In this document: piece by piece, positions 10,056 through 24,832 of the stretch
Position numbering within the stretch: position 1 is the first letter of the stretch
Layout of the letters: every line of letters starts with the position of its first letter
IMG/VR virus record: IMGVR_UViG_2541047822_000003
From: a virus
Taxonomy: Duplodnaviria > Heunggongvirae > Uroviricota > Caudoviricetes
Reading direction: 5' to 3' (one strand)
Length of the DNA: 53,032 nt
Position numbers and translations under genes: made by a program
Notes under the pieces: model-generated
What the model was told of the DNA's origin: nothing
The model's input: only the letters and a program-made list of their open reading frames with translations
Databases searched by the model: none

Positions 10056-10095
10056 GTGTTAATTTCTGGTCATGAGGTAATTTTCAGGAGGGCTT

Positions 10096-10518
10096 GTGGC
10101 AAAAGTTTTTACACAAGAAGAGCGGGAAAAAATTAAAGGGCAGGTTCTTGAACTCGTACGCCAGAGTGGACGCGAGACGTTACGACAACTGGAAGCTAAA
10201 ACTGGGGCAACAAGATATCTGATGAGCGTTCTGGCCAGAGAGCTGGTTGCCAGTGGCGATGTATACAATTCTGGCTACGGGTTATTCCCGTCTGAACAGG
10301 CTCGTAAAGACTGGCAAAATGCCCGCAAAAAATTATCGAGGGCAAAGCTGAAGAAACCGGTTGTGGTTGATCCGGACCTTATCTGGTCATTACCTGACGG
10401 AGAAATACGTCGCTACGACAGTCGCCTAAACATAATCTGTCGCGAGTGCCGGAAGAGCGAAGTTATGCAGCGCATATTGTCGTTTTATCAGGGGGATGTT
10501 CGGTATTTATTGAAGTGA
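10096..10518 (+). CDS. Hypothetical protein of the replication module
   Basis: 140-aa ORF with GTG start preceded by AGGAGG; downstream of the O-like gene; no recognisable motif. Confidence 0.5.
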   Translation: MAKVFTQEEREKIKGQVLELVRQSGRETLRQLEAKTGATRYLMSVLARELVASGDVYNSGYGLFPSEQARKDWQNARKKLSRAKLKKPVVVDPDLIWSLPDGEIRRYDSRLNIICRECRKSEVMQRILSFYQGDVRYLLK

Positions 10519-10574
10519 CGAGATTAAAGTGCATTAGTTCAGATGCAAATTGACATTTTGTGGCACAGGGTAGA

Positions 10575-10602
10575 GCTAGCGTGGTTGTCCGCTTTGTGCC
10601 AA
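10575..10602 (+). repeat. 28-bp palindrome-like junction element, copy A (ttgtccgcttt-GTGCCA-agagcagacgc)
   Basis: 11-6-11 architecture with GTGCCA core, shared with copies at 14258-14285 and 15424-15451; lies 250 bp upstream of the BCCT gene. Confidence 0.55.
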
Positions 10603-10852
10603 GAGCAGACGCTGGTAATTCGTGCCTAATATACTTCACTTAACTTATATCCCAGCTTTGATACAGATCATACAAATTAAATGCCCCAGTAATTGGCAGG
10701 CTGAGTAACTTAAAACTCCTTAGAATATAGGATGATTTGTATCGGCACTCATTCCACCATGCATTCCGATTAACCCCGCATAGCCAGTTGAACTTTGCTA
10801 CTCTGTGAGAGGTAGTACCTTCTATCCAGTGCGGATTTAATTAATGGAATAA

Positions 10853-12856
10853 ATGATTATGAGTGAAAATGATACAACCCCAAAGAAGTCTACAAGCCAG
10901 ATTAACAAAGCGGTATTCTTTACATCTGCTTTGCTAATTTTCCTTCTTGTCGCCTTTGCCGCCGTATTCCCGGATGTCGCCGACAAAAATTTTAAACTAC
11001 TTCAGCAACAAATCTTCACGAATGCCAGCTGGTTCTACATACTTGCTGTGGCCCTGATTTTACTGAGCGTCACGTTCCTTGGACTCTCACGTTACGGTGA
11101 TATAAAGCTGGGCCCAGACCATGCGCAGCCTGATTTCAGCTACCACTCCTGGTTCGCGATGCTTTTTTCGGCAGGGATGGGGATCGGCCTGATGTTCTTT
11201 GGCGTTGCCGAACCTGTGATGCATTATCTTTCGCCACCTGTCGGCACTCCAGAGACCGTTGCGGCAGCGAAGGAAGCCATGCGCCTGACGTTCTTCCACT
11301 GGGGTCTGCACGCATGGGCAATTTATGCCATCGTGGCGCTGATTCTGGCCTTTTTCAGTTACCGTCACGGTCTGCCTTTAACGCTGCGTTCTGCGCTCTA
11401 TCCCATTATCGGCGATCGCATTTACGGGCCTATAGGCCACGCGGTTGATATCTTCGCCGTGATAGGCACTGTCTTTGGCGTTGCAACATCGCTGGGTTAC
11501 GGTGTATTGCAGGTGAATGCCGGTTTGAACCATCTTTTCGGCGTGCCCATCAATGAAACGGTACAGGTCATTTTGATCGTGGTCATCACGGGGTTAGCGA
11601 CGATTTCGGTGGTGTCCGGCCTGGACAAGGGAATACGCATCCTGTCTGAGCTTAATCTGGGCCTGGCGGTGTTGCTCCTGGCGCTGGTCTTGTGCCTGGG
11701 TCCCACTGTGCTTCTGCTGAAGTCATTTGTGGAAAATACGGGTGGTTATCTGTCGGAACTGGTGAGTAAAACGTTCAACCTTTACGCGTATGAACCCAAG
11801 TCGAGCAACTGGCTGGGGGGCTGGACATTATTATACTGGGGATGGTGGCTTTCATGGTCGCCGTTTGTAGGTATGTTCATTGCACGCGTTTCCCGCGGCA
11901 GGACAATTCGTGAGTTCGTGACTGGCGTGTTGTTTGTTCCCGCCGGCTTTACGCTCATGTGGATGACGGTGTTTGGAAACAGCGCCATCTATCTCATCAT
12001 GAACCAGGGCGCCACTGACCTCGCCAATACCGTTCAGCAGGATGTTGCGCTTGCCCTGTTTAATTTCCTGGAGCATTTCCCGTTCTCTTCCGTGCTGTCA
12101 TTCATTGCAATGGCGATGGTCATCGTCTTCTTTGTAACGTCTGCTGATTCGGGGGCAATGGTTGTGGATACTCTGGCATCAGGTGGGGTGGCAAACACGC
12201 CCGTCTGGCAGCGAATTTTCTGGGCATCGCTCATGGGCGTTGTTGCTATTGCCCTGCTGATCGCAGGGGGGCTGAGTGCGTTGCAAACCGTAACGATAGC
12301 GAGTGCATTGCCCTTCTCAGTTATCTTATTAATATCCATATACGGACTGTTAAAAGCCCTGCGTCGGGATTTGACCAAGCGTGAAAGCCTTAGCATGGCG
12401 ACTATTGCTCCTACGGCTGCACGTAACCCAATTCCCTGGCAGAGAAGGTTACGCAATATCGCGTATTTGCCGAAGCGCTCTCTTGTGAAACGTTTTATGG
12501 ACGACATTATCCAACCCGCCATGACGCTGGTTCAGGAGGAACTTAACAAGCAGGGAACGATAAGCCACATCAGTGACGCCGCCGAGGATCGTATTCGCCT
12601 TGAAGTCGATTTGGGCAACGAGCTGAATTATATATATGAAGTGAGGCTTCGCGGGTATAACTCACCGACCTTCGCGCTCGCTGCGCTGGATAATGATGAG
12701 CAGCAGAGTGAACAACATCGATATTATCGCGCTGAAGTCTATCTCAAAGAGGGCGGCCAAAATTATGATGTAATGGGCTGGAATCAGGAACAGCTGATTA
12801 ATGACATACTGGACCAGTACGAAAAACACCTGCACTTCCTGCATCTGGTTCGTTAA
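10853..12856 (+). CDS. BCCT-family transporter, BetT-like (choline/betaine-type osmoprotectant uptake)
   Basis: 667-aa polytopic membrane protein with the BCCT signature GWTLLYWGWWLSWSPFVGMFIARVSRGRTIREF and a BetT-like C-terminus (DILDQYEKHLHFLHL). Alternative start ATG 10859. Confidence 0.8.
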   Translation: MIMSENDTTPKKSTSQINKAVFFTSALLIFLLVAFAAVFPDVADKNFKLLQQQIFTNASWFYILAVALILLSVTFLGLSRYGDIKLGPDHAQPDFSYHSWFAMLFSAGMGIGLMFFGVAEPVMHYLSPPVGTPETVAAAKEAMRLTFFHWGLHAWAIYAIVALILAFFSYRHGLPLTLRSALYPIIGDRIYGPIGHAVDIFAVIGTVFGVATSLGYGVLQVNAGLNHLFGVPINETVQVILIVVITGLATISVVSGLDKGIRILSELNLGLAVLLLALVLCLGPTVLLLKSFVENTGGYLSELVSKTFNLYAYEPKSSNWLGGWTLLYWGWWLSWSPFVGMFIARVSRGRTIREFVTGVLFVPAGFTLMWMTVFGNSAIYLIMNQGATDLANTVQQDVALALFNFLEHFPFSSVLSFIAMAMVIVFFVTSADSGAMVVDTLASGGVANTPVWQRIFWASLMGVVAIALLIAGGLSALQTVTIASALPFSVILLISIYGLLKALRRDLTKRESLSMATIAPTAARNPIPWQRRLRNIAYLPKRSLVKRFMDDIIQPAMTLVQEELNKQGTISHISDAAEDRIRLEVDLGNELNYIYEVRLRGYNSPTFALAALDNDEQQSEQHRYYRAEVYLKEGGQNYDVMGWNQEQLINDILDQYEKHLHFLHLVR

Positions 12857-12863
12857 CAGCAAC

Positions 12864-12890
12864 ATGCCGCCACAGAGGCGGCATTTATTT
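12864..12890 (+). terminator. Rho-independent terminator-like hairpin after the BCCT gene
   Basis: ATGCCGCC-acaga-GGCGGCAT followed by TTATTT, 8 nt after the BCCT stop. Confidence 0.6.
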
Positions 12891-12919
12891 ATCCCGGCTG
12901 CAATATGAGGGAATGCAGA

Positions 12920-14197
12920 ATGATTTCACGCTGGAAATGGATGCTGAAGCAGACATTTAAAAAACTATGGTTCAGGGCAACGTTATTCGCAATTGTCGCA
13001 ATAATAACGGCCCTTTTATCAATTCTTTTTAAATCAATGATACCTGAGTCGGTTTCCGTGAAGGTTGGTGCGGAAGCAGTCGATAACATTCTGAACATAC
13101 TGGCATCGAGTATGCTGGCAGTGACCACATTTTCGCTGAGCATCATGGTCACAGCCTACGGTTCAGCCACTACTAATGTGACTCCCAGAGCTACTCGTTT
13201 AGTTGTTGAAGACGTCACCACACAAAATGTACTGGCCACCTTCATCGGTTCTTTTCTCTTCAGTCTGGTAGGGATTATTGCCCTCAATATGGGAGCTTAT
13301 GGAGAAAGGGGGAGAGTCATTTTATTCATTGTAACACTGGTTGTCATTGCCTTAATCCTCATCACATTGCTTCGCTGGATACAGCATTTGACCTCTCTGG
13401 GGAGGGTTGGTGAGACAACGGCAAAAGTAGAACAGGCGGCCATCGAAACATTTATTGCGAGAGCAAGAAATCCCTGTCTCGGCGGATATCCATGGCTTGA
13501 GAACAATGAACAGCCGAAAGGAACGGTTGCAGTTTATCCGAAAAAGATTGGCTATGTTGAATATGTTGATATGGTGAAACTCAGCAAGCTGCTGACCAAT
13601 GATCCCCGTCATGTATACCTCGTGGCGCAGCCGGGCAGTTTCATACATCCGTCCACGCCAGTTTTGTACCTGAGTCAGGGCCAGGAGTCATCAATCAGCA
13701 CCGATTTACTTGAGACGATTATTGTCTCGGATGTACGTTCATTTGCTCAGGACCCCCGATTTTGTCTTAGCGTCATGGCCGAAATAGCCTGCCGAGCCCT
13801 TTCCCCCGCAGTGAACGATCCTGGAACCGCCATTGATGTCATTGGCAGAGGTGTACGTATACTTTCCGCTTACGCGCAGAATAAATCTGATGAAATAGAA
13901 GTGAAATATCCTTCTGTACATGTTGCACCACTTCAGAATAACGATCTACTTGAAGACTTTTTCTCACCTGTTGCGCGCGATGGTGCCAGTATGAGGGAAA
14001 TTCAGATAAGGGTACTTAAAGGACTGTCGATGCTGAGTAAGGGTTGGCCTGGAATTTTTGCTGAAGCCGCACAAACCCTAGCATTTGAAACATTAGAGCA
14101 TGCTACTCGTGCTGACCATATAGATTCTGATAGATATCTAATAAAATCAATTTATTATAATTTATTTAGTGGCGAAGATTCTAATAAAAAACCATAG
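12920..14197 (+). CDS. Membrane protein, DUF2254-like (4 N-terminal TM helices plus soluble C-terminal domain)
   Basis: ORF 12905-14197; start preferred at ATG 12920 (GAGGGA 7 nt upstream). Four hydrophobic helices then a soluble domain; family call is from recall, not a search. Confidence 0.65.
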   Translation: MISRWKWMLKQTFKKLWFRATLFAIVAIITALLSILFKSMIPESVSVKVGAEAVDNILNILASSMLAVTTFSLSIMVTAYGSATTNVTPRATRLVVEDVTTQNVLATFIGSFLFSLVGIIALNMGAYGERGRVILFIVTLVVIALILITLLRWIQHLTSLGRVGETTAKVEQAAIETFIARARNPCLGGYPWLENNEQPKGTVAVYPKKIGYVEYVDMVKLSKLLTNDPRHVYLVAQPGSFIHPSTPVLYLSQGQESSISTDLLETIIVSDVRSFAQDPRFCLSVMAEIACRALSPAVNDPGTAIDVIGRGVRILSAYAQNKSDEIEVKYPSVHVAPLQNNDLLEDFFSPVARDGASMREIQIRVLKGLSMLSKGWPGIFAEAAQTLAFETLEHATRADHIDSDRYLIKSIYYNLFSGEDSNKKP

Positions 14198-14257
14198 TTG
14201 CGGAGCAAGCGATACGGTTGTTGGCAAGTCAAGGGCAAAGCATTCGCGTGAGAGTGG

Positions 14258-14285
14258 GCGTCTGCTTTGTGCCATGAGCGGACAT
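14258..14285 (+). repeat. 28-bp palindrome-like junction element, copy B (gcgtctgcttt-GTGCCA-tgagcggacat)
   Basis: Same 11-6-11/GTGCCA architecture; 61 bp downstream of the DUF2254 stop. Confidence 0.55.
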
Positions 14286-14489
14286 GGGCCTCCTCAGCAG
14301 TTCTGCAGACAGCTCTCGTGTAGTAAGAAACTGGAAAGCAGGGTTTCGATATCTGGTCATGAGTCTAAGATAGTCAGGACTGCGGCAGAATCGGATGTTA
14401 CTAAGCTTGGATCAACAGTATCTTCGATGTAAGAAAATTACCTTGAAAATATTTGGGGCCAAGGTTACGCTAATAAAAAATTGTCAAGT

Positions 14490-14522
14490 AAAACGCAATT
14501 ATTATATTAATAGTTGCGTTTT
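14490..14522. terminator. AT-rich hairpin between convergent genes (AAAACGCAA-15 nt-TTGCGTTTT)
   Basis: 9-bp inverted repeat read directly between the DUF2254 gene and the 3' end of the 225-aa gene; weak stem with long loop. Confidence 0.3.
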
Positions 14523-14556
14523 AATAATATCTTGCAGATGTAATAATATTGGGTGT

Positions 14557-15234
14557 TTATGTCAAACCTGCTCTACGTCCTCTTGACATAATTTCCTTCT
14601 GATAAGGAATTGTTCCATCTTTAATAAGCCTTGAGAGCTCGTTCAATCCACCATCAATTCTCTGAGAGACGTTAAAGAGAATATTTCTATTTGCTAGCAC
14701 AGGGATTAAGTATTCATACTCCTCATAGTCATCACAAAAATCCATAGCACACATACCCCACTCAGCATTTATAAATGGATCTATAACCTCATAAATAAAT
14801 TGAGATGTCAGCATTGAGACATCTTTATTAGGAGCAGCAAAATGTTGAATAGAGTTCCTCAATTTCCCAAAATCATTGTATAACTTAAGATTATTAATCT
14901 TCTTTCCAGTTGCAGCCCAAACCTTCTCAGGCAACTCTGAATAAGTAATTGTTTGCCCTTTTTCTAATAAGCTTTCAAAATCAAGAAGCCCTGTAGTTTT
15001 ATTTACGCAATCAGCTGTTGATTTTGGTAATGACTCAAAAATTAAAAGAGGGTGTTCCTGAGCAAGACGAGCTTTGAGAAAAATCTCACAAGCATGGGCT
15101 GCCTGTAAGACGCCCAATTGTGACCACATAGAGTTACTCATATCATAAAAATGAGCAAGGTAGTTGGCATGAGCAAGTGAACCTGCTCCCAAAACAATCA
15201 TATGCTCATGAACTTTTTTTAAATTAACATCCAT
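14557..15234 (-). CDS. Hypothetical protein with a HEPN-like Rx4H motif (putative RNase / abortive-infection-type protein)
   Basis: 225-aa ORF in AT-rich DNA; GAGGAG RBS 7 nt upstream; predicted alpha-helical with motif GKLRNSIQHF (R-N-x3-H) typical of HEPN catalytic sites. Motif-level inference only. Confidence 0.6.
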   Translation of the reverse strand: MDVNLKKVHEHMIVLGAGSLAHANYLAHFYDMSNSMWSQLGVLQAAHACEIFLKARLAQEHPLLIFESLPKSTADCVNKTTGLLDFESLLEKGQTITYSELPEKVWAATGKKINNLKLYNDFGKLRNSIQHFAAPNKDVSMLTSQFIYEVIDPFINAEWGMCAMDFCDDYEEYEYLIPVLANRNILFNVSQRIDGGLNELSRLIKDGTIPYQKEIMSRGRRAGLT

Positions 15235-15360
15235 TTAACACTCCTCAAAAAACATTTGTTTACGTTATCAAAAAAAGATGGGTATTGCCCACATTTTAAG
15301 ACGATTATATTTAAATTTGTTATGTGGTGTTACTTAAGTTTCGGATGAATAATATGTCTG

Positions 15361-15395
15361 CTCTTCGCTCTTCGCTCTTCGCTCTTCGCTCTTCG
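15361..15395 (+). repeat. Tandem heptanucleotide repeat (CTCTTCG)x5 plus a degenerate sixth unit
   Basis: ctcttcgctcttcgctcttcgctcttcgctcttcgctcaccg read directly; flanked by GTCTGCT (15356-15362) and GCGGAC (15402-15407), resembling arms of the junction palindrome. Confidence 0.85.
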
Positions 15396-15423
15396 CTCAC
15401 CGCGGACCTTCAGCTTCGTTAAC

Positions 15424-15451
15424 ATGTCCGCTCCGTGCCAGGAGCGGACAT
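15424..15451 (+). repeat. Perfect 28-bp palindrome, copy H (ATGTCCGCTCC-GTGCCA-GGAGCGGACAT)
   Basis: 11-bp perfect inverted arms around a 6-bp GTGCCA core; no flanking T-tract, so not a canonical intrinsic terminator; lies between the two minus-strand cargo genes. Confidence 0.8.
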
Positions 15452-15582
15452 TAATGAGTTAAGTTCTGAAAGTAGCATTAAATACGCACATGCTTTTCCT
15501 AATAACTCGATTGTCATTTATATCGTTAAACAGTTCCGGAGACAACTCTGACTTACAGGAATATCGCTAAGCCTCTGCCTCC

Positions 15583-16464
15583 CTAAGCAATATCCTGATT
15601 GCTGAGTTGAGGCATTAATCGCTCAAATAATTCATCACTTTCATAGGGGATGTTATTAATATGCCGAGAATAAATTAACCCTCTAGGACAAAGCTTGGAC
15701 AAAGAACTTTCACATAAAACACCTATACATTTTTTGTTTTCCCCTGCCATAAAGTCTTCTAAATTCCTCAAGATAAAATTTCGTGACAACTCACGATGTT
15801 CGCTTATTGCCATTCTCGCATCTTCAGAATTAATGAGAGACAGGTTAGGAAGCAAATCAGTAACATTAACGGCCACCATGCCTAGATTTTTAAGTGATGA
15901 GCTATCCTTTATCCTGCGCACGATCTGCTGGTTTGCAACTTTTATGTTTTTAGATAGTTTTTTTAACGACTTAACTCGTTTGCATTCTACAAAAAGAATT
16001 TTGCCGTCAGAGAGTTTCACTTCGATATCACAAATGCTTTTAAGAGAAATTTTATATCCTGCACGTAGAAATCTTGCAGCCATTGACAACTCAAACAGAA
16101 AGTCCCTTGCAGGATCGTTCTCAGAAGTAGCACGAAATTCTTGACCAGTGATAACCTTCTTTATTTGATCGAGATACTCCTTGATATCAAGCCATTTAAG
16201 ATCATTGTAAACTCTTATAATTTCATTAGCTTCCACGTGAGAATTCATCATCTCCTTCATAAAGGCAACTAAATTTTCATCGGGTGTATCTTTGAAAATT
16301 TTTTCACCATTTGATAGTGCTTTCAATTTTTGAAGGTTTTTGTGGTATACCCCATATCTTGTTACTGCAAACCTAAAACCCAAACTATCGAACCAAGTAC
16401 AAACCTCTTCAAATTTAGTTAACAAACCTGAAAACTCATGCTCGTATATTTCCTTGCCTTCCAT
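15583..16464 (-). CDS. Hypothetical protein with a PD-(D/E)xK-like nuclease core motif
   Basis: ORF runs to 16542 (TTG); start preferred at ATG 16464 (MEGKEIYEHEF, AAAGAGAAG upstream). Motif pattern E(FLFELSMAARFL)...D(ICDIEVKL)-SDG-KILFVECK fits a beta-hairpin D...ExK nuclease core. AT-rich. Inference. Confidence 0.6.
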   Translation of the reverse strand: MEGKEIYEHEFSGLLTKFEEVCTWFDSLGFRFAVTRYGVYHKNLQKLKALSNGEKIFKDTPDENLVAFMKEMMNSHVEANEIIRVYNDLKWLDIKEYLDQIKKVITGQEFRATSENDPARDFLFELSMAARFLRAGYKISLKSICDIEVKLSDGKILFVECKRVKSLKKLSKNIKVANQQIVRRIKDSSSLKNLGMVAVNVTDLLPNLSLINSEDARMAISEHRELSRNFILRNLEDFMAGENKKCIGVLCESSLSKLCPRGLIYSRHINNIPYESDELFERLMPQLSNQDIA

Positions 16465-16704
16465 ATTCTTCTCTTTAAATAAACCCAGATTCGTATTAGT
16501 GCTTGTCAAATTCATAGGGGCTGTGCCCCTTAAAATCATCAAGTGGGAGCTTGACCTGTAAAGATTGTGAAGCTATTCGCATCTCGATTAAATGCTCTAT
16601 ATAGTTGACCAGACCAATTTATACCAAACGGCAGAATAAAAGAAGGAATCCTCTCTGCACTTAACTAGTCATTCCTTGACTACTGTGATTAAGATCACTT
16701 CCAA

Positions 16705-16730
16705 AGTCCGCTTATCGCTCAAAGCGGACT
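16705..16730 (+). repeat. Palindrome related to the junction element (AGTCCGCTT-atcgctca-AAGCGGACT)
   Basis: 9-bp perfect arms sharing GTCCGCT/AGCGGAC with copies A, B and H but with a different 8-bp centre; upstream of the PD-(D/E)xK-like gene. Confidence 0.5.
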
Positions 16731-16908
16731 AGAAGGTTAGCTTGCGTCGGACTTGGCGTATTTAAAGAAGTGCTGGTGGTGACTGGTTGTTGTGTTCCAT
16801 TTCTACAGAACAAAATCACAGAAACTATACCCAATAGTTATATTGAATCAATGATGAGACAGCCTCATATTTATCAGAACTGGTGTACGTCCAATACAGG
16901 AGGTTGTC

Positions 16909-16998
16909 GTGCTGGTTCTCAAATGTGCGCTAGCTATTGCGGCTGTAATGGCAATTTATTGTCTTGCTGTTGTTCTTATGGAGCGGCTTTCTGATTGA
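16909..16998 (+). CDS. Candidate small hydrophobic peptide (29 aa, type I toxin-like)
   Basis: GTG start 5 nt after a perfect AGGAGG (16898-16903); product MLVLKCALAIAAVMAIYCLAVVLMERLSD is one predicted TM helix with a charged tail. Speculative; overlaps a 74-aa Cys-rich frame that I rejected. Confidence 0.3.
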   Translation: MLVLKCALAIAAVMAIYCLAVVLMERLSD

Positions 16999-17145
16999 TT
17001 ACATACTGGCTAGAAAAAAGGTGTTACCTTGGTTTATCTTTGTCCGGCAAGGTGCGCTCATTAATCTTAAGTAAATTTATTGCTCAAGTATTCAGATTAC
17101 TTCTTATGGTTGAAGTCTCCTGTCAATGTAGAACCAATATATTTA

Positions 17146-18964: not shown

Positions 18965-19254
18965 TGGTGAATTTACGTAAAGCGGCTAAAGGCCAGATGT
19001 GCCAGATCAGAATCCCTGGCTACTGCAATCACAATCCCGAAACCTCTGTGCTGGCGCATTACAGGCTGGCGGGGACGTGCGGAACAGCGACAAAACCACA
19101 CGATATGCAGGCGGCGATAGCCTGTAGCTCATGCCACGATCTAATCGACGGGCGGGTAAAAACCAGCGATTACACCAAAGAAGAATTGCGCCTGATGCAT
19201 GCTGAAGGGGTTTTTCGCACACAAGAAATCTGGAGAAAGAAAGGTCATTTATGA
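18964..19254 (+). CDS. Small Cys/His-rich protein, YbcO/DUF1364-like (putative nuclease)
   Basis: 96 aa with CxxxxxxxC ... H ... CxxCH pattern (MVNLRKAAKGQMCQIRIPGYCNHNPETSVLAH...ACSSCHDLIDGR); stop overlaps the next gene start (ATGA). Confidence 0.55.
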   Translation: MVNLRKAAKGQMCQIRIPGYCNHNPETSVLAHYRLAGTCGTATKPHDMQAAIACSSCHDLIDGRVKTSDYTKEELRLMHAEGVFRTQEIWRKKGHL

Positions 19255-19793
19255 TTTACCCAACGAATACAGGAAAAAGCGGAGAACACCTTCGCCTCAC
19301 CACGCTGGAAAGTGTCTGGATTCAGGGAAAACTACGTATGTGGGGGCGCTGGTCGTATATTGGCGGTGGCAGGTCAGGGAATATGTTCAATCAGTTGTTG
19401 GCATCCAAAAAACTGACGAAAACAGCCATTAATGAAGCCCTGCGCAGAATGAAAAAAGCGGGAATAGAGAAAGCTGAGCTGGAAGCGTTTTTGCGAGAGA
19501 TGATCAACGGCAAGCAAAAGAGCTGGCTGGCGCATTGTACTGATGCAGAGGCGTTATGTATTGATCGAGTCATAAGTGAGGTGCTGGCAGAGCATCCAGG
19601 ATTGATTTGCATTCTCCGGCAACGCTATGAAGGGCGGGGGATGACTAAGCGCAAAATGGCTGAATTGCTAAATGATGCACACCCAGAGTGGTGTTTTAGC
19701 ACATGCGAAAAACGGATTGCTAATTGGTTAGCTGTTGCTGAGTATGCCCTATATATTCCCATGCGTGAATCATTTGCTGAGAAAATGGCTTGA
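19251..19793 (+). CDS. Late-gene antitermination protein Q-like (phage 21/82/P22 gp23 family)
   Basis: 180 aa, contains RMWGRWSY resembling the conserved WGxW segment of Q21-type antiterminators; followed by a strong terminator 80 bp downstream and located upstream of the lysis cassette. Confidence 0.55.
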   Translation: MIYPTNTGKSGEHLRLTTLESVWIQGKLRMWGRWSYIGGGRSGNMFNQLLASKKLTKTAINEALRRMKKAGIEKAELEAFLREMINGKQKSWLAHCTDAEALCIDRVISEVLAEHPGLICILRQRYEGRGMTKRKMAELLNDAHPEWCFSTCEKRIANWLAVAEYALYIPMRESFAEKMA

Positions 19794-19873
19794 TTTCTTA
19801 CGTATAAACTGCTTCAATTTTGCTATGCTTCGCAAAGCTGTATCGCGAGGCGGATTGCAGACATGGACATCGT

Positions 19874-19900
19874 AAAAAAACCGCTTAATGCGGTTTTTTT
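19874..19900 (+). terminator. Bidirectional Rho-independent terminator (candidate tR')
   Basis: AAAAAAACCGC-ttaat-GCGGTTTTTTT read directly, downstream of the Q-like gene. Confidence 0.8.
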
Positions 19901-20220
19901 ACGTCAGGAAAGCAGGGGAGAATGCTGCTAGTTGGGCAACTGGTCTTTCTGCTCCAAATTATAACAGAGACCAGTTATAGTTTCGGTGCTGTGTTTTTTT
20001 TACAATATTGTGATAACACATTGCTGGCGGGAGTTTTGATATTTCTTGGCAGGGGCTGATGATGCGTTATCCTGATGTCGTCAACTCATATAAAATGAGA
20101 TGAGAGATCATTGCAGGGTGGTTTGTAATTCGCTGTTTAGCGGGACAATATGTTGTCTGATACAAGACACCCGACGCCTCAGATTACTATAATAAAGACG
20201 AAGCATCCTTTGTATTGACC

Positions 20221-20246
20221 AACCGCCTGTTTAGGCGGTTCTTTTT
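20221..20246 (+). terminator. Rho-independent terminator
   Basis: AACCGCCT-gttt-AGGCGGTT followed by CTTTTT. Confidence 0.7.
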
Positions 20247-20837
20247 GGGCTGGTTTATTGTATGCCAAATGATTATTAAAAAGGTTGTGTTAATAACAAA
20301 ATCCGAAATAATATGCCTGCATATTTTTATCTTGCTTATATTCTGCATATTGTGCATAGCAGGCTCATCCCTGCAATCAAAACTGTATGATGAGTATTTT
20401 TTGTTTTCCTTTTTTCCAGTCATCTGATGATGACCTGCTTCTTTTTAATCCGGATCGACATCAGTTTTTTAAGATAATTCCTGCGAGTTATATGCATAAA
20501 TACCACAAACTCCGCATTTTATGTGGTTGGGAGTTGCCGGGTGCGCAGTGAGTTTGCTAAGAAAACTCCTGCATGGTGAATCCCCCTGTGCGGTGGGGTG
20601 ATACCATTAACCTTTTCTGTCGCCGACAGGTATCACGAACATTTTGTTCACCGGGAGGCACCCGGCACCATGCACTTCAATAGATTCTCTCCACATTATG
20701 GATATTCTTTCAGAATATCCCACGCAGACTTTGTGTAAATGTTAACAAATGTGCGTTTTATTTGATCTGATTCGCTGTTTGAGCGTCCAAAACAACGGTA
20801 TATATAATCCTTTACTATATGACATATGTGAGGAAAA

Positions 20838-21266
20838 ATGGGTTTTCGTAGCGCATCAATTCTTACGTTGATTATTAGTGGGATTATTATCGGGTGCACT
20901 GATGCTGTATCGACAAATTATCATGACCGTACATCATATTACTCCGATAAAGCAATAGAGACACAGTATGTGAGTTCATCTGAACGTACTTCTGATGTTA
21001 GTGAGGATATCCGTCTGTATGCCCATCAAATCAAGAGCGCCATCGAAAAACAGTTCGGGGATGCGAGTAAGTATTCAGGAAAAGAGTGTACACTGAGAAT
21101 GCATATGGCCCCGAATGGCCTTCTACTGGAGGTTAAAAGAGAAAGTGGAGACCTCGATTTATGTCGTGAAGCGATGAATGCGATAAAGAATGCTGATATA
21201 CCTGCCCCCCCTTCGCCGGAAGTATATAAAGTATTTCAAAATGGGGTGCTGGATTTTAAACCCTGA
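20838..21266 (+). CDS. Lipoprotein with a TolA C-terminal (domain III)-like domain
   Basis: Lipobox IIGC; C-terminal ~85 aa (YAHQIKSAIEKQFGDASKYSGKECTLRMHMAPNGLLLEVKRESGDLDLCREAMNAIKNADIPAPPSPEVYKVFQNGVLDFKP) closely parallels the E. coli TolA C-terminus as I recall it, including the terminal LDFKP. Confidence 0.8.
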   Translation: MGFRSASILTLIISGIIIGCTDAVSTNYHDRTSYYSDKAIETQYVSSSERTSDVSEDIRLYAHQIKSAIEKQFGDASKYSGKECTLRMHMAPNGLLLEVKRESGDLDLCREAMNAIKNADIPAPPSPEVYKVFQNGVLDFKP

Positions 21267-21416
21267 TATTTATTGTTTTGTAATAAACGGTTTCGGCTTA
21301 GGTTTGTTCTGACACAGCTACGGCACTGAGCTAAATTTAGCGGATAGTCAGCTCTGAGCCAGTGGCGGACGTAACAACTACTATTGCTGAGATTTTAATG
21401 GATTGAGGAGCAAGAA

Positions 21417-21812
21417 GTGGGATTAAAGAAAATCGTTATGTTGACTTTTTGGGTCGGTTTTGTTGCGGGATGCACACCTTTACACCCTTCAGATTGCCAC
21501 AAAACTACTGCTACAGGTAGTTGCAGTTCAGGACGCTGGGATGATCAGGATGAATGGGGGGCGCAAGCGCGGGGAATCAGAGCTGCAATTAATGCCAAAC
21601 TTGATGAGCCGCATAACTGGAAAGGGAAAAAATGCAGGTTGCATATGGAATTCTCTCAGGATGGCACGGCGTTAAAAATATCTACCAGTAACGGTGATAA
21701 AGCCTATTGCGAAGCGATAAAGTCCGCAGCTCATAAAGCCAAATTTCCGGCCTTCAACAATCCGGAAGTCTACAGAGATTTTCAGAAATCTGGCTTTGAC
21801 ATGCGAGGTTAG
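21417..21812 (+). CDS. Lipoprotein, divergent paralog with TolA C-terminal-like domain
   Basis: Lipobox VAGC; conserved Cys pair and K-x-x-A-x-x-P-x-x-x-PEVY motif (KKCRLHMEFSQDGTALKI...YCEAIKSAAHKAKFPAFNNPEVYRDFQ) matching the upstream paralog. Confidence 0.7.
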   Translation: MGLKKIVMLTFWVGFVAGCTPLHPSDCHKTTATGSCSSGRWDDQDEWGAQARGIRAAINAKLDEPHNWKGKKCRLHMEFSQDGTALKISTSNGDKAYCEAIKSAAHKAKFPAFNNPEVYRDFQKSGFDMRG

Positions 21813-22063
21813 CTCTTCAATTACTATATCTCATTCATAGCAAACTGACAGATTTGATGATGTTCTATATACGAAACCTGTGATGTCAAGTCTGAGCTAA
21901 TACAAATAAACATAATATCAGAGAAATACATTTTATTAGCTCGCTACGGCGAGCTTTTTATATTGCATCGTCTCCAGCATATATATTAATTAAGGCTCTG
22001 ATTGATGTGTCTGAAAGCCTACACATAATAACTATGCCATCCGTTCCGTGCGGAGGTGAGGCT

Positions 22064-22279
22064 ATGAAATCCATGGACAAAATTTCAACAGGCATTGCCT
22101 ACGGCACCTCCGCAGGCAGTGCTGGCTACTGGTTTTTACAGTTGCTCGATAGAGTAACTCCGTCACAGTGGGCTGCAATCGGTGTGCTGGGTAGTCTGGT
22201 ATTTGGCCTGCTGACGTACCTGACAAACCTTTATTTCAAGATTAAAGAAGATAAGCGCAAGGCTGCGAGAGGTGAATAA
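22064..22279 (+). CDS. Holin, phage-21 S-type (pinholin) with dual-start motif
   Basis: ORF 22007-22279; start at [14 protein letters not shown] (ATG 22064, GGAGGTGAG upstream); 71 aa with two TM segments; MK-SMDK dual start as in S21. Confidence 0.8.
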
Positions 22280-22776
22280 TGCCTCCATCATTACGAAAAG
22301 TCGTTGCTGCTGCTATTGGTGGCGGAGCAATTGCCATAGCATCTGTGTTAATCACTGGCCCAAGTGGTAACGATGGTCTGGAAGGTGTGAGACATAATCC
22401 TTACAAAGACATAGTTGGTGTATGGACTGTATGTTACGGGCATACAGGAAAAGACATCATTCCCGGTAAAACGTATACCGAAGCAGAATGCAAAGCCCTC
22501 CTGAATAAAGACCTTGCCACGGTCGCCAGACAAATTAACCCGTACATCAAAGTCGATATACCGGAAACAACGCGCGGCGCTCTTTACTCGTTCGTCTACA
22601 ACGTGGGTGCTGGCAATTTCAGAACATCGACGCTTCTTCGCAAAATAAACCAGGGCGATATCAAAGGCGCATGTGACCAGCTACGTCGCTGGACATACGC
22701 TGGCGGTAAGCAATGGAAAGGGCTGATGACTCGCCGTGAGATTGAGCGTGAAGTCTGTTTGTGGGGGCAGCAATGA
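22279..22776 (+). CDS. Endolysin (lysozyme-type, SAR signal-anchor-release N-terminus)
   Basis: 165 aa; Gly/Ala-rich N-terminal TM segment ([18 protein letters not shown]) followed by a lysozyme-like domain; start overlaps the holin stop. Confidence 0.8.
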
Positions 22777-23237
22777 GCAGGTTAACCGCGATTATCTCCG
22801 CTCTGGTTATCTGCATCATCGTCTGCCTGTCATGGGCTGTTAATCATTACCGTGATAACGCCATCGCCTACAAAGAACAGCGCGACAAAAATGCCAGAGA
22901 ACTGAAGCTGGCGAACGCGGCAATTACTGACATGCAGATGCGTCAGCGTGATGTTGCTGCGCTCGATGCAAAATACACGAAGGAGTTAGCTGATGCGAAA
23001 GCTGAAAATGATGTTCTGCGTGATGATGTTGCCGCTGGTCGTCGTCGGTTGCACATCAAAGCAGTCTGTCAGTCAGTGCGTGAAGCCACCACCGCCTCCG
23101 GCGTGGATAATGCAGCCTCCCCCCGACTGGCAGACACCGCTGAACGGGATTATTTCACCCTCCGGGAACGACTGGTAATGATGCAGGCCCAACTTGAAGG
23201 TGCTCAGCAATACATAACCGAGCAGTGTTTAAAGTAA
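22773..23237 (+). CDS. rzpR: Inner-membrane spanin Rz (intact; pseudogene rzpR in K-12)
   Basis: ORF 22761-23237; start at [19 protein letters not shown] (N-terminal TM then coiled-coil); follows the endolysin. Confidence 0.8.
22993..23178 (+). CDS. rzoR: Outer-membrane lipoprotein spanin Rz1, embedded in Rz in the +1 frame
   Basis: 61 aa [20 protein letters not shown]..., lipobox VVGC, proline-rich mature part; entirely within the Rz reading frame. Confidence 0.8.
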
Positions 23238-23374
23238 AATCTTAACTACAATATGATTCATTTTGATGATTGTTTCATAAGGAACAGTGAAGTAAGATCT
23301 AAGAGGAGTTAAATTTTATACAGTATAATCATAATATTGCAGCAAGGTGGTTATAATTGAAAGAATATTTAGAT

Positions 23375-24832
23375 ATGAATACATCTCATGTAAGAGTTGT
23401 TACTCATATGTGTGGGTTCCTGGTTTGGCTCTATAGTCTTTCAATGTTGCCACCAATGGTTGTAGCATTGTTTTATAAAGAAAAAAGCCTGTTCGTTTTC
23501 TTTATAACTTTCGTTATATTTTTTTGCATTGGTGGCGGAGCGTGGTATACAACTAAGAAATCTGGCATTCAATTACGTACCCGTGATGGGTTTATTATAA
23601 TTGTAATGTTTTGGATTTTGTTTTCTGTTATTAGTGCATTCCCTTTATGGATTGACTCAGAACTTAATTTAACGTTCATTGATGCTCTGTTTGAAGGGGT
23701 TTCTGGAATAACAACAACAGGAGCAACTGTAATTGATGATGTTAGTTCATTACCTCGGGCATATTTGTACTATCGGTCACAGTTAAATTTTATAGGTGGT
23801 TTAGGAGTTATTGTTCTGGCGGTTGCTGTATTGCCATTATTGGGTATTGGTGGTGCAAAGCTTTATCAGTCAGAAATGCCGGGGCCATTTAAGGATGACA
23901 AACTCACTCCCCGCCTGGCCGATACGTCACGGACACTGTGGATAACTTATTCTTTATTAGGTATTGCTTGTATTGTCTGTTATAGACTTGCAGGAATGCC
24001 TTTGTTTGATGCTATTTGTCACGGGATTTCCACAGTTTCGCTTGGTGGTTTCTCAACTCATAGCGAGAGTATCGGATATTTTAATAACTATTTGGTTGAG
24101 CTGGTGGCTGGTTCTTTTTCCCTGCTATCGGCTTTCAACTTCACTCTTTGGTATATTGTTATTAGCAGGAAAACGATAAAACCTTTAATCAGAGATATTG
24201 AACTTCGTTTCTTTCTGTTAATAGCCTTAGGGGTGATCATTGTTACCTCTTTCCAGGTCTGGCATATAGGTATGTATGACTTGCATGGAAGTTTTATTCA
24301 TTCGTTTTTTCTTGCCAGCTCCATGCTCACTGATAATGGTTTAGCTACGCAGGATTATGCAAGTTGGCCCACGCACACGATAGTGTTTTTGCTGTTGTCA
24401 AGTTTCTTTGGGGGATGTATAGGTTCAACTTGTGGTGGAATTAAGTCACTTCGATTTCTTATACTTTTCAAACAAAGCAAACACGAGATAAATCAGCTTT
24501 CTCATCCCAGAGCGTTGTTGAGTGTAAATGTAGGAGGGAAGATAGTTACAGATCGTGTAATGAGGTCTGTATGGAGTTTCTTTTTTCTTTATACTCTCTT
24601 CACGGTGTTTTTTATACTGGTGTTAAATGGTATGGGATATGATTTTCTTACATCATTTGCAACAGTGGCTGCATGTATTAATAATATGGGATTAGGTTTT
24701 GGGGCTACTGCATCGTCATTCGGAGTGCTTAATGACATTGCAAAATGTTTAATGTGCATAGCTATGATTCTTGGTCGCCTTGAAATTTATCCTGTTATTA
24801 TATTGTTTTCAGGTTTTTTTTGGCGCTCCTAA
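23375..24832 (+). CDS. trkG: Potassium uptake protein TrkG (Rac cargo)
   Basis: ORF 23357-24832; start at MNTSHVRVVTHMCGFLVWLYSL; 485-aa polytopic membrane protein; AT-rich; recognised as Rac TrkG. Confidence 0.9.
   Translation: MNTSHVRVVTHMCGFLVWLYSLSMLPPMVVALFYKEKSLFVFFITFVIFFCIGGGAWYTTKKSGIQLRTRDGFIIIVMFWILFSVISAFPLWIDSELNLTFIDALFEGVSGITTTGATVIDDVSSLPRAYLYYRSQLNFIGGLGVIVLAVAVLPLLGIGGAKLYQSEMPGPFKDDKLTPRLADTSRTLWITYSLLGIACIVCYRLAGMPLFDAICHGISTVSLGGFSTHSESIGYFNNYLVELVAGSFSLLSAFNFTLWYIVISRKTIKPLIRDIELRFFLLIALGVIIVTSFQVWHIGMYDLHGSFIHSFFLASSMLTDNGLATQDYASWPTHTIVFLLLSSFFGGCIGSTCGGIKSLRFLILFKQSKHEINQLSHPRALLSVNVGGKIVTDRVMRSVWSFFFLYTLFTVFFILVLNGMGYDFLTSFATVAACINNMGLGFGATASSFGVLNDIAKCLMCIAMILGRLEIYPVIILFSGFFWRS

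Follow-up and report, generated by a model that had tools for sequence, protein, structure and literature searches.

A Rac-like E. coli prophage carries, between its late-gene activator and its lysis genes, two small predicted outer-membrane lipoproteins that are stand-alone copies of the TolA domain hijacked by colicins and filamentous phages. Each has a lipoprotein signal peptide with a lipobox, a flexible segment and a C-terminal TolA domain III (TolAIII). It seems most likely that they act as decoys against those invaders, although this is a tentative reading inferred from sequence and structure, and nobody has tested it. The two genes are not a local duplication, and both belong to a wide, unnamed family of 120-150 aa lipobox-TolAIII proteins that is under purifying selection.

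The two genes and their setting in the prophage

We analysed a window of 53,032 nucleotides, the IMG/VR virus record IMGVR_UViG_2541047822_000003, which holds a complete Rac-type prophage. The features of the region are as follows.

19251..19793 (+): Q-like late-gene antiterminator (DUF1133 type)
19866..19900 (no strand): perfect hairpin flanked by an A-run and a T-run (bidirectional terminator), just after the Q-like gene, aaaaaaaccgcttaatgcggttttttt
20164..20240 (+): candidate late promoter (AAGACA-18-TATAAT, 20164-20193) followed by a terminator-like hairpin (20221-20240), an arrangement like pR'/tR'
20509..22280 (+): mosaic module of sRNA-like element, ORF1, ORF2, terminator and holin, moving as one block
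20541..20727 (+): STnc100-family sRNA-like element
20779..20808 (+): sigma-70 promoter-like site 30 nt upstream of ORF1 (TTGAGC-18-TATAAT, 10 of 12)
20838..21266 (+): ORF1, predicted 142-aa lipoprotein; signal peptide residues 1-19 with lipobox IIGC (Cys20 at 20895-20897), low-confidence linker residues 21-53, TolAIII residues 54-142 (20997-21263)
21417..21812 (+): ORF2, predicted 131-aa lipoprotein; signal peptide residues 1-18 with lipobox VAGC (Cys19 at 21471-21473), conserved Cys-containing segment residues 20-40, TolAIII residues 41-131 (21537-21809)
21938..21962 (+): intrinsic terminator between ORF2 and the holin (AGCTCGCTACGGCGAGCT + TTTTT), a 7-bp stem with 5 GC pairs, then a T-run
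22064..22279 (+): essD-type holin, 71 aa from the ATG (the open reading frame itself starts at a GTG at 22007)
22279..23237 (+): endolysin (22279-22776) and spanin pair, Rz (22761-23237) with embedded Rz1 (22993-23178)

The original prediction was of tandem lipoproteins carrying a TolAIII-like domain in the slot between Q and the lysis genes, and this observation was confirmed. Both ORFs are present on the + strand. ORF1 has a GAGGA Shine-Dalgarno sequence 5 nt upstream of its ATG, and its signal peptide is MGFRSASILTLIISGIIIG, followed by Cys20, with Thr at +2. ORF2 starts at a GTG preceded by GAGGAG, and its signal peptide is MGLKKIVMLTFWVGFVAG, followed by Cys19, again with Thr at +2. The GTG start is supported by this Shine-Dalgarno sequence, by the KK n-region, and by an ATG at the same codon in the pO157 homolog. 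Both match the signal peptidase II pattern of a positively charged n-region, a hydrophobic h-region and a lipobox [LVI][ASTVI][GAS]C: ORF1 has MGFR, SASILTLIISGI and IIGC, and ORF2 has MGLKK, IVMLTFWVGF and VAGC. The same motif is present in 40 of 43 distant short relatives, the other 3 having near-lipobox forms. Neither ORF nor any relative examined has the Asp at +2 that acts as a retention signal. This is the sequence rule alone, as lipid modification and Lol sorting to the outer membrane were not measured. RefSeq annotation calls ORF1 a tolA pseudogene and starts ORF2 too late, which hides this architecture.

The absence of significant alignment or structural similarity to TolAIII had been set out in advance as grounds for abandoning the idea, and we found both kinds of similarity. 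Pfam PF06519 (TolA C-terminal, gathering cut-off 25 bits) scored 82.6 bits (E 2.4e-23) for ORF1 and 54.6 bits (E 1.3e-14) for ORF2. A phmmer search against the PDB TolAIII chains 1s62, 3qdp, 2x9a and 1tol gave E 5e-28 for ORF1 and 5e-9 for ORF2. ORF1 residues 57-142 are 60.5% identical (52 of 86) to E. coli TolA 336-421, and the alignment reproduces the string of shared residues given in the original prediction. ORF2 is 33.8% identical over 77 residues. In AlphaFold2 models, ORF1 residues 54-142 and ORF2 residues 41-131 fold with pLDDT about 90 into the TolAIII topology, a three-stranded sheet packed against helices, while the N-terminal segments have low confidence. The top Foldseek hits are TolAIII: 2x9a_B at rmsd 0.6 A and target TM 0.96 for ORF1, and 3qdp at 1.1 A and TM 0.92 for ORF2.

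The cysteine pair of the domain (C363/C388 in E. coli numbering) is invariant in both of our alignments. The beta3 strand of E. coli TolA is L417-D418-F419-K420-P421, and its backbone hydrogen bonds are needed for ColN, g3p-N1 and TolB binding, because D418P and K420P abolish all three (PMC4339652). ORF1 keeps this strand identical (VLDFKP). It is conserved across 40 divergent lipoprotein relatives (L 0.70, D 0.75, F 0.93, K 0.55). ORF2 has FDMRG, with no proline at these positions.

The genes lie in the position predicted. The Q-like gene matches PHROG 753 ('anti-termination protein Q-like', E 2e-79), and PGAP names it a DUF1133 family protein. Downstream, the holin matches PHROG 9876 and PHROG 20 (holin, E 2e-37) and is named essD by PGAP, followed by the endolysin and Rz/Rz1, for which PGAP gives rrrD and a lysis protein. 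ORF1 belongs to PHROG 5772, of unknown function. The sRNA-like element matches Rfam RF02076 over the full model length (84.6 bits against a gathering score of 47, E 8e-18). The hairpin after the Q-like gene, read directly in the sequence, gives weak sub-threshold isrK hits on both strands.

Whether transcription depends on Q or on a promoter of the genes' own had also been posed as a test. The terminator at 21938-21955 is strong. The promoter-like sites come from a consensus scan only, and the late function of the one at 20164-20193 is inferred by analogy with lambdoid late promoters. Site counts in the region do not exceed shuffles (11 against 7.6 +/- 2.7) and variant ORF1 loci show no consistent promoter, so the site upstream of ORF1 is suggestive only. 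In the absence of transcript data, these observations do not settle whether the genes are expressed from the repressed prophage, and we gave the promoter predictions little weight as evidence of moron status. The other moron criterion is clearer: the genes are inserted between conserved phage genes and are dispensable, being found with two different Q types and with differing endolysins, and being absent from K-12 Rac and from all but 1 of 50,697 deposited phage genomes.

Distribution and evolution of the family

The original prediction described ORF2 as a divergent paralog of ORF1, which needs correction. ORF1 and ORF2 are only 28% identical, and ORF1 lineages exist without ORF2. ORF2 is a precise cassette (window 21380-21815) shared at 80-88% nucleotide identity with plasmid and chromosomal copies. 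Rather than a product of local duplication, it is a separately acquired cassette of a distinct subfamily that is far more widespread on plasmids and chromosomes than in phages.

ORF1-type genes were found only in E. coli prophages, in 898 of 5426 complete genomes (about 16% of complete E. coli genomes), and 782 genomes carry ORF1 at 99% identity or more. Every ORF1-type gene found lies between Q and the holin, co-oriented with the late operon. Variants of ORF1 carry a different lipoprotein signal peptide on the same domain, and neighbours in the slot at variant loci include an SASA/DUF1737-domain gene and AraC-type regulators. The module at 20509-22280 is shared at 95-99% nucleotide identity over exactly this span with mEp460_ev081 and IMG/VR prophages, although those phages have a different Q and endolysins only 32-35% identical. 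A tblastn search of the 50,697 phage genomes and a BFVD fold search gave nothing beyond mEp460_ev081.

ORF2-type genes also sit on about 600 plasmids, I-complex conjugative plasmids among them, and as chromosomal singletons in other Enterobacterales. They occur in the pO157 leading region and directly after the nikB relaxase of MPF_I conjugative plasmids, whose pili are filamentous-phage receptors. One chromosomal singleton of the family lies next to GmrSD/HEPN genes. In every Enterobacter and Serratia assembly looked up, the homologs occupy the same fixed chromosomal position. ORF2 residues 20-40 (PLHPSxCHKTTATGSCSSGRW...) are 90% conserved from E. coli to Serratia although they lie outside the fold. 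We considered whether this N-terminal segment (SSGRWDDQDEWG) mimics the colicin TolB box (DGSGWSSE..WG). This was not supported: the Trp spacing differs by one residue and, by alignment to TolA I337, the second Trp falls in the N-terminal helical region of the modelled domain. The segment is unexplained.

dN/dS is 0.05-0.12 for ORF2 and, against 65-68% variants, 0.23-0.36 in the ORF1 domain. Recent capture of the host's own tolA is not supported, as blastn with ORF1 finds no match to chromosomal tolA in the roughly 4,500 genomes lacking the prophage gene. The TolA set used for comparison (cluster representatives at 50% identity) was too sparse and biased to test whether the lipoproteins are monophyletic or repeatedly derived from host TolAs. 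Within that set, ORF1 is closer to E. coli TolAIII (60.5%) than to any non-family relative.

Possible roles

The original prediction offered two functions, a decoy excluding Tol-dependent colicins or Ff-type phages, or a perturbation of Tol-Pal during lysis. Its interpretation is partly supported: every test we could run supports the structural part, while the functional part, though mechanistically coherent and in agreement with published TolAIII binding data, rests on inference. Our analysis shows the architecture, the fold, the conservation of the binding strand, the purifying selection and the carriage on mobile elements, whereas lipidation, outer-membrane sorting, ligand binding, expression in the lysogen and a protective phenotype are inferred. 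Colicin and phage sensitivity and envelope phenotypes were not assayed. Literature searches found no functional study of these proteins, and no PADLOC family matched at E up to 1.

We favour, tentatively and at somewhat less than even confidence, a model in which ORF1 and ORF2 are outer-membrane-anchored, periplasm-facing 'mini-TolA' lipoproteins, each displaying a free TolAIII not connected to the TolQR motor. When a group A colicin threads its translocation domain through a porin, or a filamentous phage presents g3p-N1, the invader would meet the decoy at the inner face of the outer membrane and bind it by the same beta-strand addition it would use on real TolA. As the decoy would transmit no force and give no route to the inner membrane, import would stall and the lysogen would be tolerant. 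Two different decoys, ORF1 a close mimic of E. coli TolA and ORF2 diverged, would broaden the range of invaders covered, and the plasmid-borne ORF2 copies would protect pilus-bearing cells from pilus-specific filamentous phages.

Several lines of evidence fit this picture. The lipobox without Asp at +2 would place the domain where colicin T-domains emerge from porins. Affinities favour the invaders: the ColN-TolA KD is 1 uM against 40 uM for TolB-TolA, and a review gives 40-200 uM for TolA-TolB (PMC7391070), so a decoy could trap invaders without titrating TolB much. There is reciprocal precedent, as periplasmic g3p-N1 sequesters TolA and gives colicin A tolerance and a 4-log drop in phage uptake (PMC10424213). 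The distribution is that of a protective accessory gene. The strong terminator before the holin and the promoter-like site upstream of ORF1 would fit expression from the repressed prophage without holin read-through. However, expression might instead be purely Q-dependent and late, which would fit a lysis-related role better. Overproduced periplasmic TolAIII makes cells leaky (PMC6195910), so a decoy has a cost. The beta2 and beta3 strands of ORF2 are diverged, so it may bind something other than the known TolA ligands, and the decoy model does not explain its invariant N-terminal Cys segment. We looked for expression evidence in PMC11125564, where EDL933_2012 is 32-fold induced by ciprofloxacin and linked to 'TolA' in the text, but rejected it: the supplement lists the gene as 'tail fiber protein', the same wrong label given to the holin in mEp460_ev081, and it cannot be tied to an ORF1 homolog.

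An alternative, which we consider unlikely, is that these are late genes whose products, made in bulk from the Q-modified late transcript just before holin triggering, help lysis or release. They would bind the N-terminus of TolB (or CpoB) at the outer membrane in competition with real TolA and phenocopy a tol mutant, with a loosened outer membrane and hypervesiculation, easing the spanin step or releasing vesicles that soak up competitors. The constant position of ORF1-type genes, the window's allele travelling fused to the holin as one module, and the intact TolB-binding strand of ORF1 fit this view. Loss of TolA-TolB beta3 pairing gives a full tol phenotype, and the periplasmic leakage caused by TolAIII overproduction is exploited in biotechnology (PMC6195910). 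On the other hand, ORF2-type genes on plasmids and chromosomes, and more divergent family members, have no lysis genes nearby, a strong terminator separates ORF2 from the holin, lambdoid phages lyse well with spanins alone, and the Q-to-S slot is a general cargo site.

Similarly unlikely, in our view, is an envelope factor with a ligand other than the classical TolA partners, in which TolAIII serves as a generic beta-strand-addition module tethered to the outer membrane to bind some other periplasmic or outer-membrane protein. It might regulate TolB-Pal or CpoB in normal growth, or block entry of tailed phages or of conjugative DNA. The fixed chromosomal site of ORF2 homologs, which could point to a housekeeping envelope role, their very strong purifying selection (dN/dS 0.05-0.1), the conserved segment outside the fold and the altered beta2 and beta3 strands are in favour, and TolAIII beta-strand addition is promiscuous. 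But no candidate ligand emerges from gene neighbourhoods, which differ from genus to genus, and the closeness of ORF1 to E. coli TolAIII fits mimicry of TolA itself. That the frames are decaying fragments of a captured tolA is very unlikely and already contradicted by the sequence. PGAP labels ORF1 'tolA, incomplete, missing N-terminus, pseudogene', and TIGR02794 and PRK09510 match only by their C-terminal ends. However, the ORFs are intact, each with a Shine-Dalgarno sequence and a complete lipoprotein signal peptide grafted on, dN/dS is well below 1, and, beyond the wide conservation of ORF1, dozens of distant relatives share the lipobox-linker-TolAIII architecture.

It is possible, though less likely than not, that ORF1 and ORF2 are founding examples of an unrecognised defence principle, 'translocon mimicry'. 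Mobile elements of Enterobacterales (prophages, I-complex and F-type plasmids, chromosomal islets) would carry outer-membrane-tethered copies of TolAIII that intercept Tol-dependent bacteriocins and filamentous phages in the periplasm. Distinct decoy subfamilies would be stacked in tandem to widen coverage, and the plasmid copies would specifically offset the filamentous-phage liability that comes with making conjugative pili.

Tol-dependent colicins and filamentous phages are textbook systems, with TolAIII as their shared periplasmic target. Natural resistance to them is usually ascribed to receptor loss, immunity proteins or tol mutations, the last of which are costly. A naturally occurring, horizontally mobile TolAIII decoy would be a new route to tolerance. 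Such a decoy would affect how colicin and phage sensitivity is interpreted in natural isolates, colicin- or phage-based antimicrobials and plasmid-dependent phage strategies, and what prophages contribute to their hosts. The family is currently hidden under the names 'TolA' or 'tolA pseudogene', so comparative studies will not see it.

Comparison with known systems

The closest known relative is TolAIII itself (PF06519; PDB 1tol, 1s62, 3qdp/3qdr, 2x9a), with which the proteins share the predicted fold, the Cys pair and the beta3 strand used by TolB, ColN and g3p, diverged in ORF2. What differs is that there is no TolA domain I, the membrane anchor that couples to TolQR, and no helical domain II. 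The domain instead hangs from a predicted lipoprotein anchor, and the genes are carried on mobile elements rather than in the tolQ-tolR-tolA-tolB-pal cluster. Neither protein is a bona fide TolA. NF007065 scores are 107.8 and 53.7 against a cut-off of 213, with matches covering only model positions 293-387, and TIGR02794 scores are 75.6 for ORF1 (above the 59.45 cut-off, but C-terminal only) and 47.2 for ORF2.

The TonB C-terminal domain family (PF13103) has a related beta-strand-addition fold. ORF1 scores weakly on TonB_2 (23.6 bits) and TonB C-terminal domains appear as distant Foldseek hits, but the similarity is much weaker than to TolA and no TonB-box partners are implied.

Engineered periplasmic TolAIII, made as signal-peptide fusions (Levengood-Freyermuth et al. 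1993; Wan & Baneyx 1998, cited in PMC6195910), is likewise a free domain uncoupled from the motor. It is reported to cause periplasmic leakage, and the 1993 study reported tolerance to colicins and Ff phage. Those proteins are artificial, soluble and overproduced, whereas the proteins here are natural, predicted to be lipid-anchored to the outer membrane, and of unknown expression level.

The superinfection-exclusion lipoproteins Cor (phi80, N15, HK022) and Llp (T5) are also small phage-encoded outer-membrane lipoproteins, which block entry of other phages and colicins using the same import route. They inactivate the outer-membrane receptor FhuA and are not copies of a host protein, while here the protein mimics the periplasmic translocation hub. 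No sequence relationship was seen, Pfam hitting only TolA/TonB_2. Periplasmic expression of g3p-N1 or colicin T-domains exploits the same interaction pair in reverse to block import. In that case the ligand is used to mask TolA; here a copy of TolA would mask the ligand.

The prophage and the two predicted lipoproteins

The window is a complete Rac-type lambdoid prophage of E. coli. It starts at intR and runs through recET, kilR, sieB, the replication genes, a block of non-phage cargo, hokD, a Q-like gene, the lysis cassette, trkG, and the head and tail genes to stfR/tfaR/pinR. The cargo block, at about 10770-17020 (10071-16321 in locus L005, a locus with RefSeq/PGAP annotation), encodes a BCCT transporter, a DUF2254 protein, a LysR regulator, a gamma-glutamylcyclotransferase and an MFS transporter, while trkG (23357-24832) follows the spanin genes, as in K-12 Rac. 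E. coli K-12 carries a decayed Rac in which ydaW abuts an rzpR fragment, so the whole Q-to-endolysin segment, including the two genes studied here, is missing there.

The region of interest contains the following features:

19866-19900, perfect bidirectional hairpin terminator immediately after the Q-like gene
20164-20240, promoter-like site followed within about 30 nt by a terminator-like hairpin
20541-20727 (+), STnc100-family sRNA-like element
20838-21266 (+), ORF1, 142 aa, with a promoter-like site (TTGAGC-18-TATAAT) 30 nt upstream
21417-21812 (+), ORF2, 131 aa
21938-21955, strong terminator between ORF2 and the holin

The original prediction, that two tandem lipoproteins with a C-terminus like TolA domain III (TolAIII) lie between the Q antiterminator and the holin, was correct in what it observed. 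Both ORFs are intact, with good ribosome-binding sites. Each opens with a lipoprotein signal peptide consisting of an n-region, a hydrophobic core and a lipobox (IIGC in ORF1, VAGC in ORF2), and Thr follows the lipobox Cys, so the Asp+2 inner-membrane retention signal is absent. Upstream lies a Q-like antiterminator (PHROG 753, E 2e-79) and downstream lie an essD-type holin, an endolysin and Rz/Rz1.

The prediction was to be abandoned if alignment and structural modelling showed no significant similarity to TolA domain III, and both showed it. Both ORFs match the Pfam TolA C-terminal model (PF06519) far above threshold, with 82.6 bits for ORF1 and 54.6 bits for ORF2 against a cut-off of 25, and both match solved TolAIII chains directly, at E 5e-28 and 5e-9 respectively. 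ORF1 residues 57-142 are 60.5% identical to E. coli TolA 336-421 and ORF2 is 33.8% identical to TolA, but the two ORFs are only 28% identical to each other. AlphaFold2 models show a low-confidence N-terminal segment (ORF1 residues 1-50, ORF2 residues 1-39) and a confident domain (pLDDT about 90) with the TolAIII order of helices and strands. Foldseek placed TolAIII crystal structures on top for both models, with an rmsd of 0.6 A to 2x9a_B for ORF1 and 1.1 A to 3qdp for ORF2.

The two proteins are not TolA. The equivalog models match only their last ~95 positions, with NF007065 scores of 108 and 54 against a cut-off of 213; there is no membrane anchor or helical domain II, and the genes are not in a tol operon. 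They are not pseudogenes either, although RefSeq/PGAP annotates ORF1 as 'tolA, incomplete, missing N-terminus' and starts ORF2 at an internal ATG at 21438 (in L005, ORF1 at 20307-20567 and ORF2 at 20739-21113). This removes the whole signal peptide of ORF1 and the charged n-region of the signal peptide of ORF2, and as a result the lipoprotein nature of both is invisible in public annotation. The GTG at 21417 is preceded by GAGGAG, and the pO157 homolog has an ATG at that same codon.

The promoter-like site and hairpin at 20164-20240, about 300 nt after the terminator that follows the Q-like gene, resemble a pR'/tR' pair and are a possible late-promoter unit for this little-studied DUF1133-type Q, but this rests on a consensus match only. 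The STnc100-like element is a full-length match to the Rfam family (84.6 bits against a gathering threshold of 47); in L059, a locus with an ORF1 variant, a similar element lies downstream of the variant instead. The block 20509-22280, comprising the sRNA-like element, ORF1, ORF2, terminator and holin, recurs at 95-99% identity in phage mEp460_ev081 and in many IMG/VR prophages. Those phages have a different Q (lambda-type) and endolysins only 32-35% identical, so the block moves as a mosaic module.

Distribution, relatives and selection

ORF1 and ORF2 belong to two subfamilies and are not a duplication. ORF1-type genes were found only in E. coli, always between Q and the holin and co-oriented with the late operon. 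Of 5426 complete genomes, 898 carry one, 782 of them at 99% identity or more. Variants 65-68% identical occur singly in other lambdoid prophages, where they sit among TfpB-family, AraC-type and SASA/DUF1737-domain cargo genes. These variants resemble the window only from the Cys codon to the stop (20892-21267), carrying a different lipoprotein signal peptide on the same domain.

ORF2-type genes form a precise cassette (21380-21815 in the window) and also occur on about 600 plasmids. These include the pO157 leading region, after psiB/psiA/hok, and the position directly after the nikB relaxase of MPF_I conjugative plasmids typed IncK2/Z and IncI-gamma/K1. They occur as chromosomal singletons in Citrobacter, Enterobacter, Serratia, Klebsiella and Raoultella, in non-phage neighbourhoods. 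In Serratia marcescens (loci L010/L011, 6957-8736) the homolog lies directly upstream of a GmrSD-type (PF03235) gene and a HEPN-domain gene, which looks like a small defence islet.

An exhaustive profile search gave 585 cluster representatives at E up to 0.001, dozens of which are proteins of 120-150 aa matched end to end. Of 43 examined, 40 have a canonical lipobox, 3 have near-lipobox forms and none has Asp at +2. Their sources name them only 'TolA' or 'colicin import membrane protein'. Their contexts vary: next to icd, DinI and HSDR_N in Kosakonia, between a ClC channel and an OpuA transporter, and inside a phage-like contig with a VapE-type primase. Some longer relatives (P0176, P0204, P0250 and P0293, 272-335 aa) have a cleavable Sec-type signal peptide, one or two other N-terminal domains and an Ala-rich linker before TolAIII, and look like soluble periplasmic TolAIII fusions rather than membrane-anchored TolA; P0176 and P0293 each gave two matched stretches to the profile. 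Among deposited phage genomes the fold is almost absent, with a homolog found by tblastn in one of 50,697 genomes and no significant match in BFVD. The PHROG family (5772) has no assigned function, and PADLOC has no model.

Both genes have dN/dS values below 1. For ORF2 against plasmid, Enterobacter and Serratia copies dN/dS is 0.07-0.12, and 0.05-0.08 in the domain. For ORF1 against its variants it is 0.32-0.40 overall, with 0.23-0.36 in the domain and 0.36-0.87 in the linker. Across 40 divergent lipoproteins the TolAIII signature is retained: Y340, G360, K361, C363, G373, G383-D384, C388, A394, P401, Y409 and F412-K413-N414. The C-terminal strand is also retained, with L417 (0.70), D418 (0.75), F419 (0.93) and K420 (0.55). 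That strand, beta3, is where TolB, colicin N and g3p-N1 add a beta-strand; D418P and K420P abolish all three interactions and give a full tol phenotype, while colicin A binds beta2 on the other face of the sheet (PMC4339652; PMC7391070). ORF1 has VLDFKP against TolA's PLDFKP, whereas ORF2 has GFDMRG, diverged but free of proline at the critical positions.

Possible functions

The architecture and the similarity to TolAIII come directly from the sequence analysis and modelling, and this structural part of the original interpretation is confirmed. Its functional part, that the proteins might act as decoys for Tol-dependent colicins or Ff-type phages or perturb Tol-Pal during lysis, is plausible and is now better grounded in binding-site conservation, distribution and selection, but it is an inference and is still untested. 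The most likely mechanism is that the domain would hang from the inner leaflet of the outer membrane, where colicin translocation domains emerge from porins and where g3p arrives. It would bind them as TolA does but transmit no force, so import would stall. The published affinities would make this selective, as ColN-TolA has a KD of 1 uM against 40 uM (40-200 uM across species) for TolB-TolA (PMC4339652; PMC7391070). The reciprocal experiment has been published: periplasmic g3p-N1 sequesters TolA and gives colicin A tolerance and a 4-log loss of phage uptake (PMC10424213). Periplasmic TolAIII itself was shown to give tolerance to colicins and Ff phage (Levengood-Freyermuth et al., 1993). Carriage on prophages, placement next to the transfer genes of plasmids whose pili are receptors for TolA-dependent filamentous phages (If1 g3p bound to TolAIII is PDB 2x9a), and the terminator shielding the holin all fit a protective cargo gene. 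We favour this reading, though only tentatively.

Other explanations seem less likely. The proteins may deliberately perturb Tol-Pal late in infection, to loosen the outer membrane or drive vesiculation. The invariable late-operon position of ORF1 and the leakiness caused by periplasmic TolAIII overproduction (PMC6195910) support this, but it is weakened by the presence of ORF2 on plasmids and chromosomes without lysis genes, and we consider it unlikely. A different ligand or a housekeeping envelope role, especially for ORF2, is about as unlikely. It draws support from the segment after the ORF2 lipobox (residues 20-40, 21474-21536; PLHPSxCHKTTATGSCSSGRWDDQDEWG), which has two extra cysteines and is about 90% conserved from E. 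coli to Serratia with saturated synonymous change, despite lying outside the fold and being modelled by AlphaFold with low confidence. It is a constrained element of unknown role. That the genes are non-functional remnants is very improbable.

Full-text literature searches on TolA in relation to prophages, lipoproteins, colicins, decoys, superinfection exclusion, pO157, plasmid leading regions and conjugative plasmids found no paper describing these proteins. One apparent lead, the 'tail fiber/TolA' gene EDL933_2012, reported as 32-fold induced by ciprofloxacin (PMC11125564), turned out to be listed as a 'tail fiber' gene in the supplement and cannot be linked to ORF1. The 71-aa essD-type holin downstream of ORF2 is labelled 'Phage tail fiber protein' in the mEp460_ev081 record (locus L001, 7365-7580), and the same label may explain the EDL933_2012 description.

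The domain family is already known, but the architecture described here is a different form of it, widespread and hidden by misannotation. What sets it apart is a lipobox in place of TolA domains I and II.
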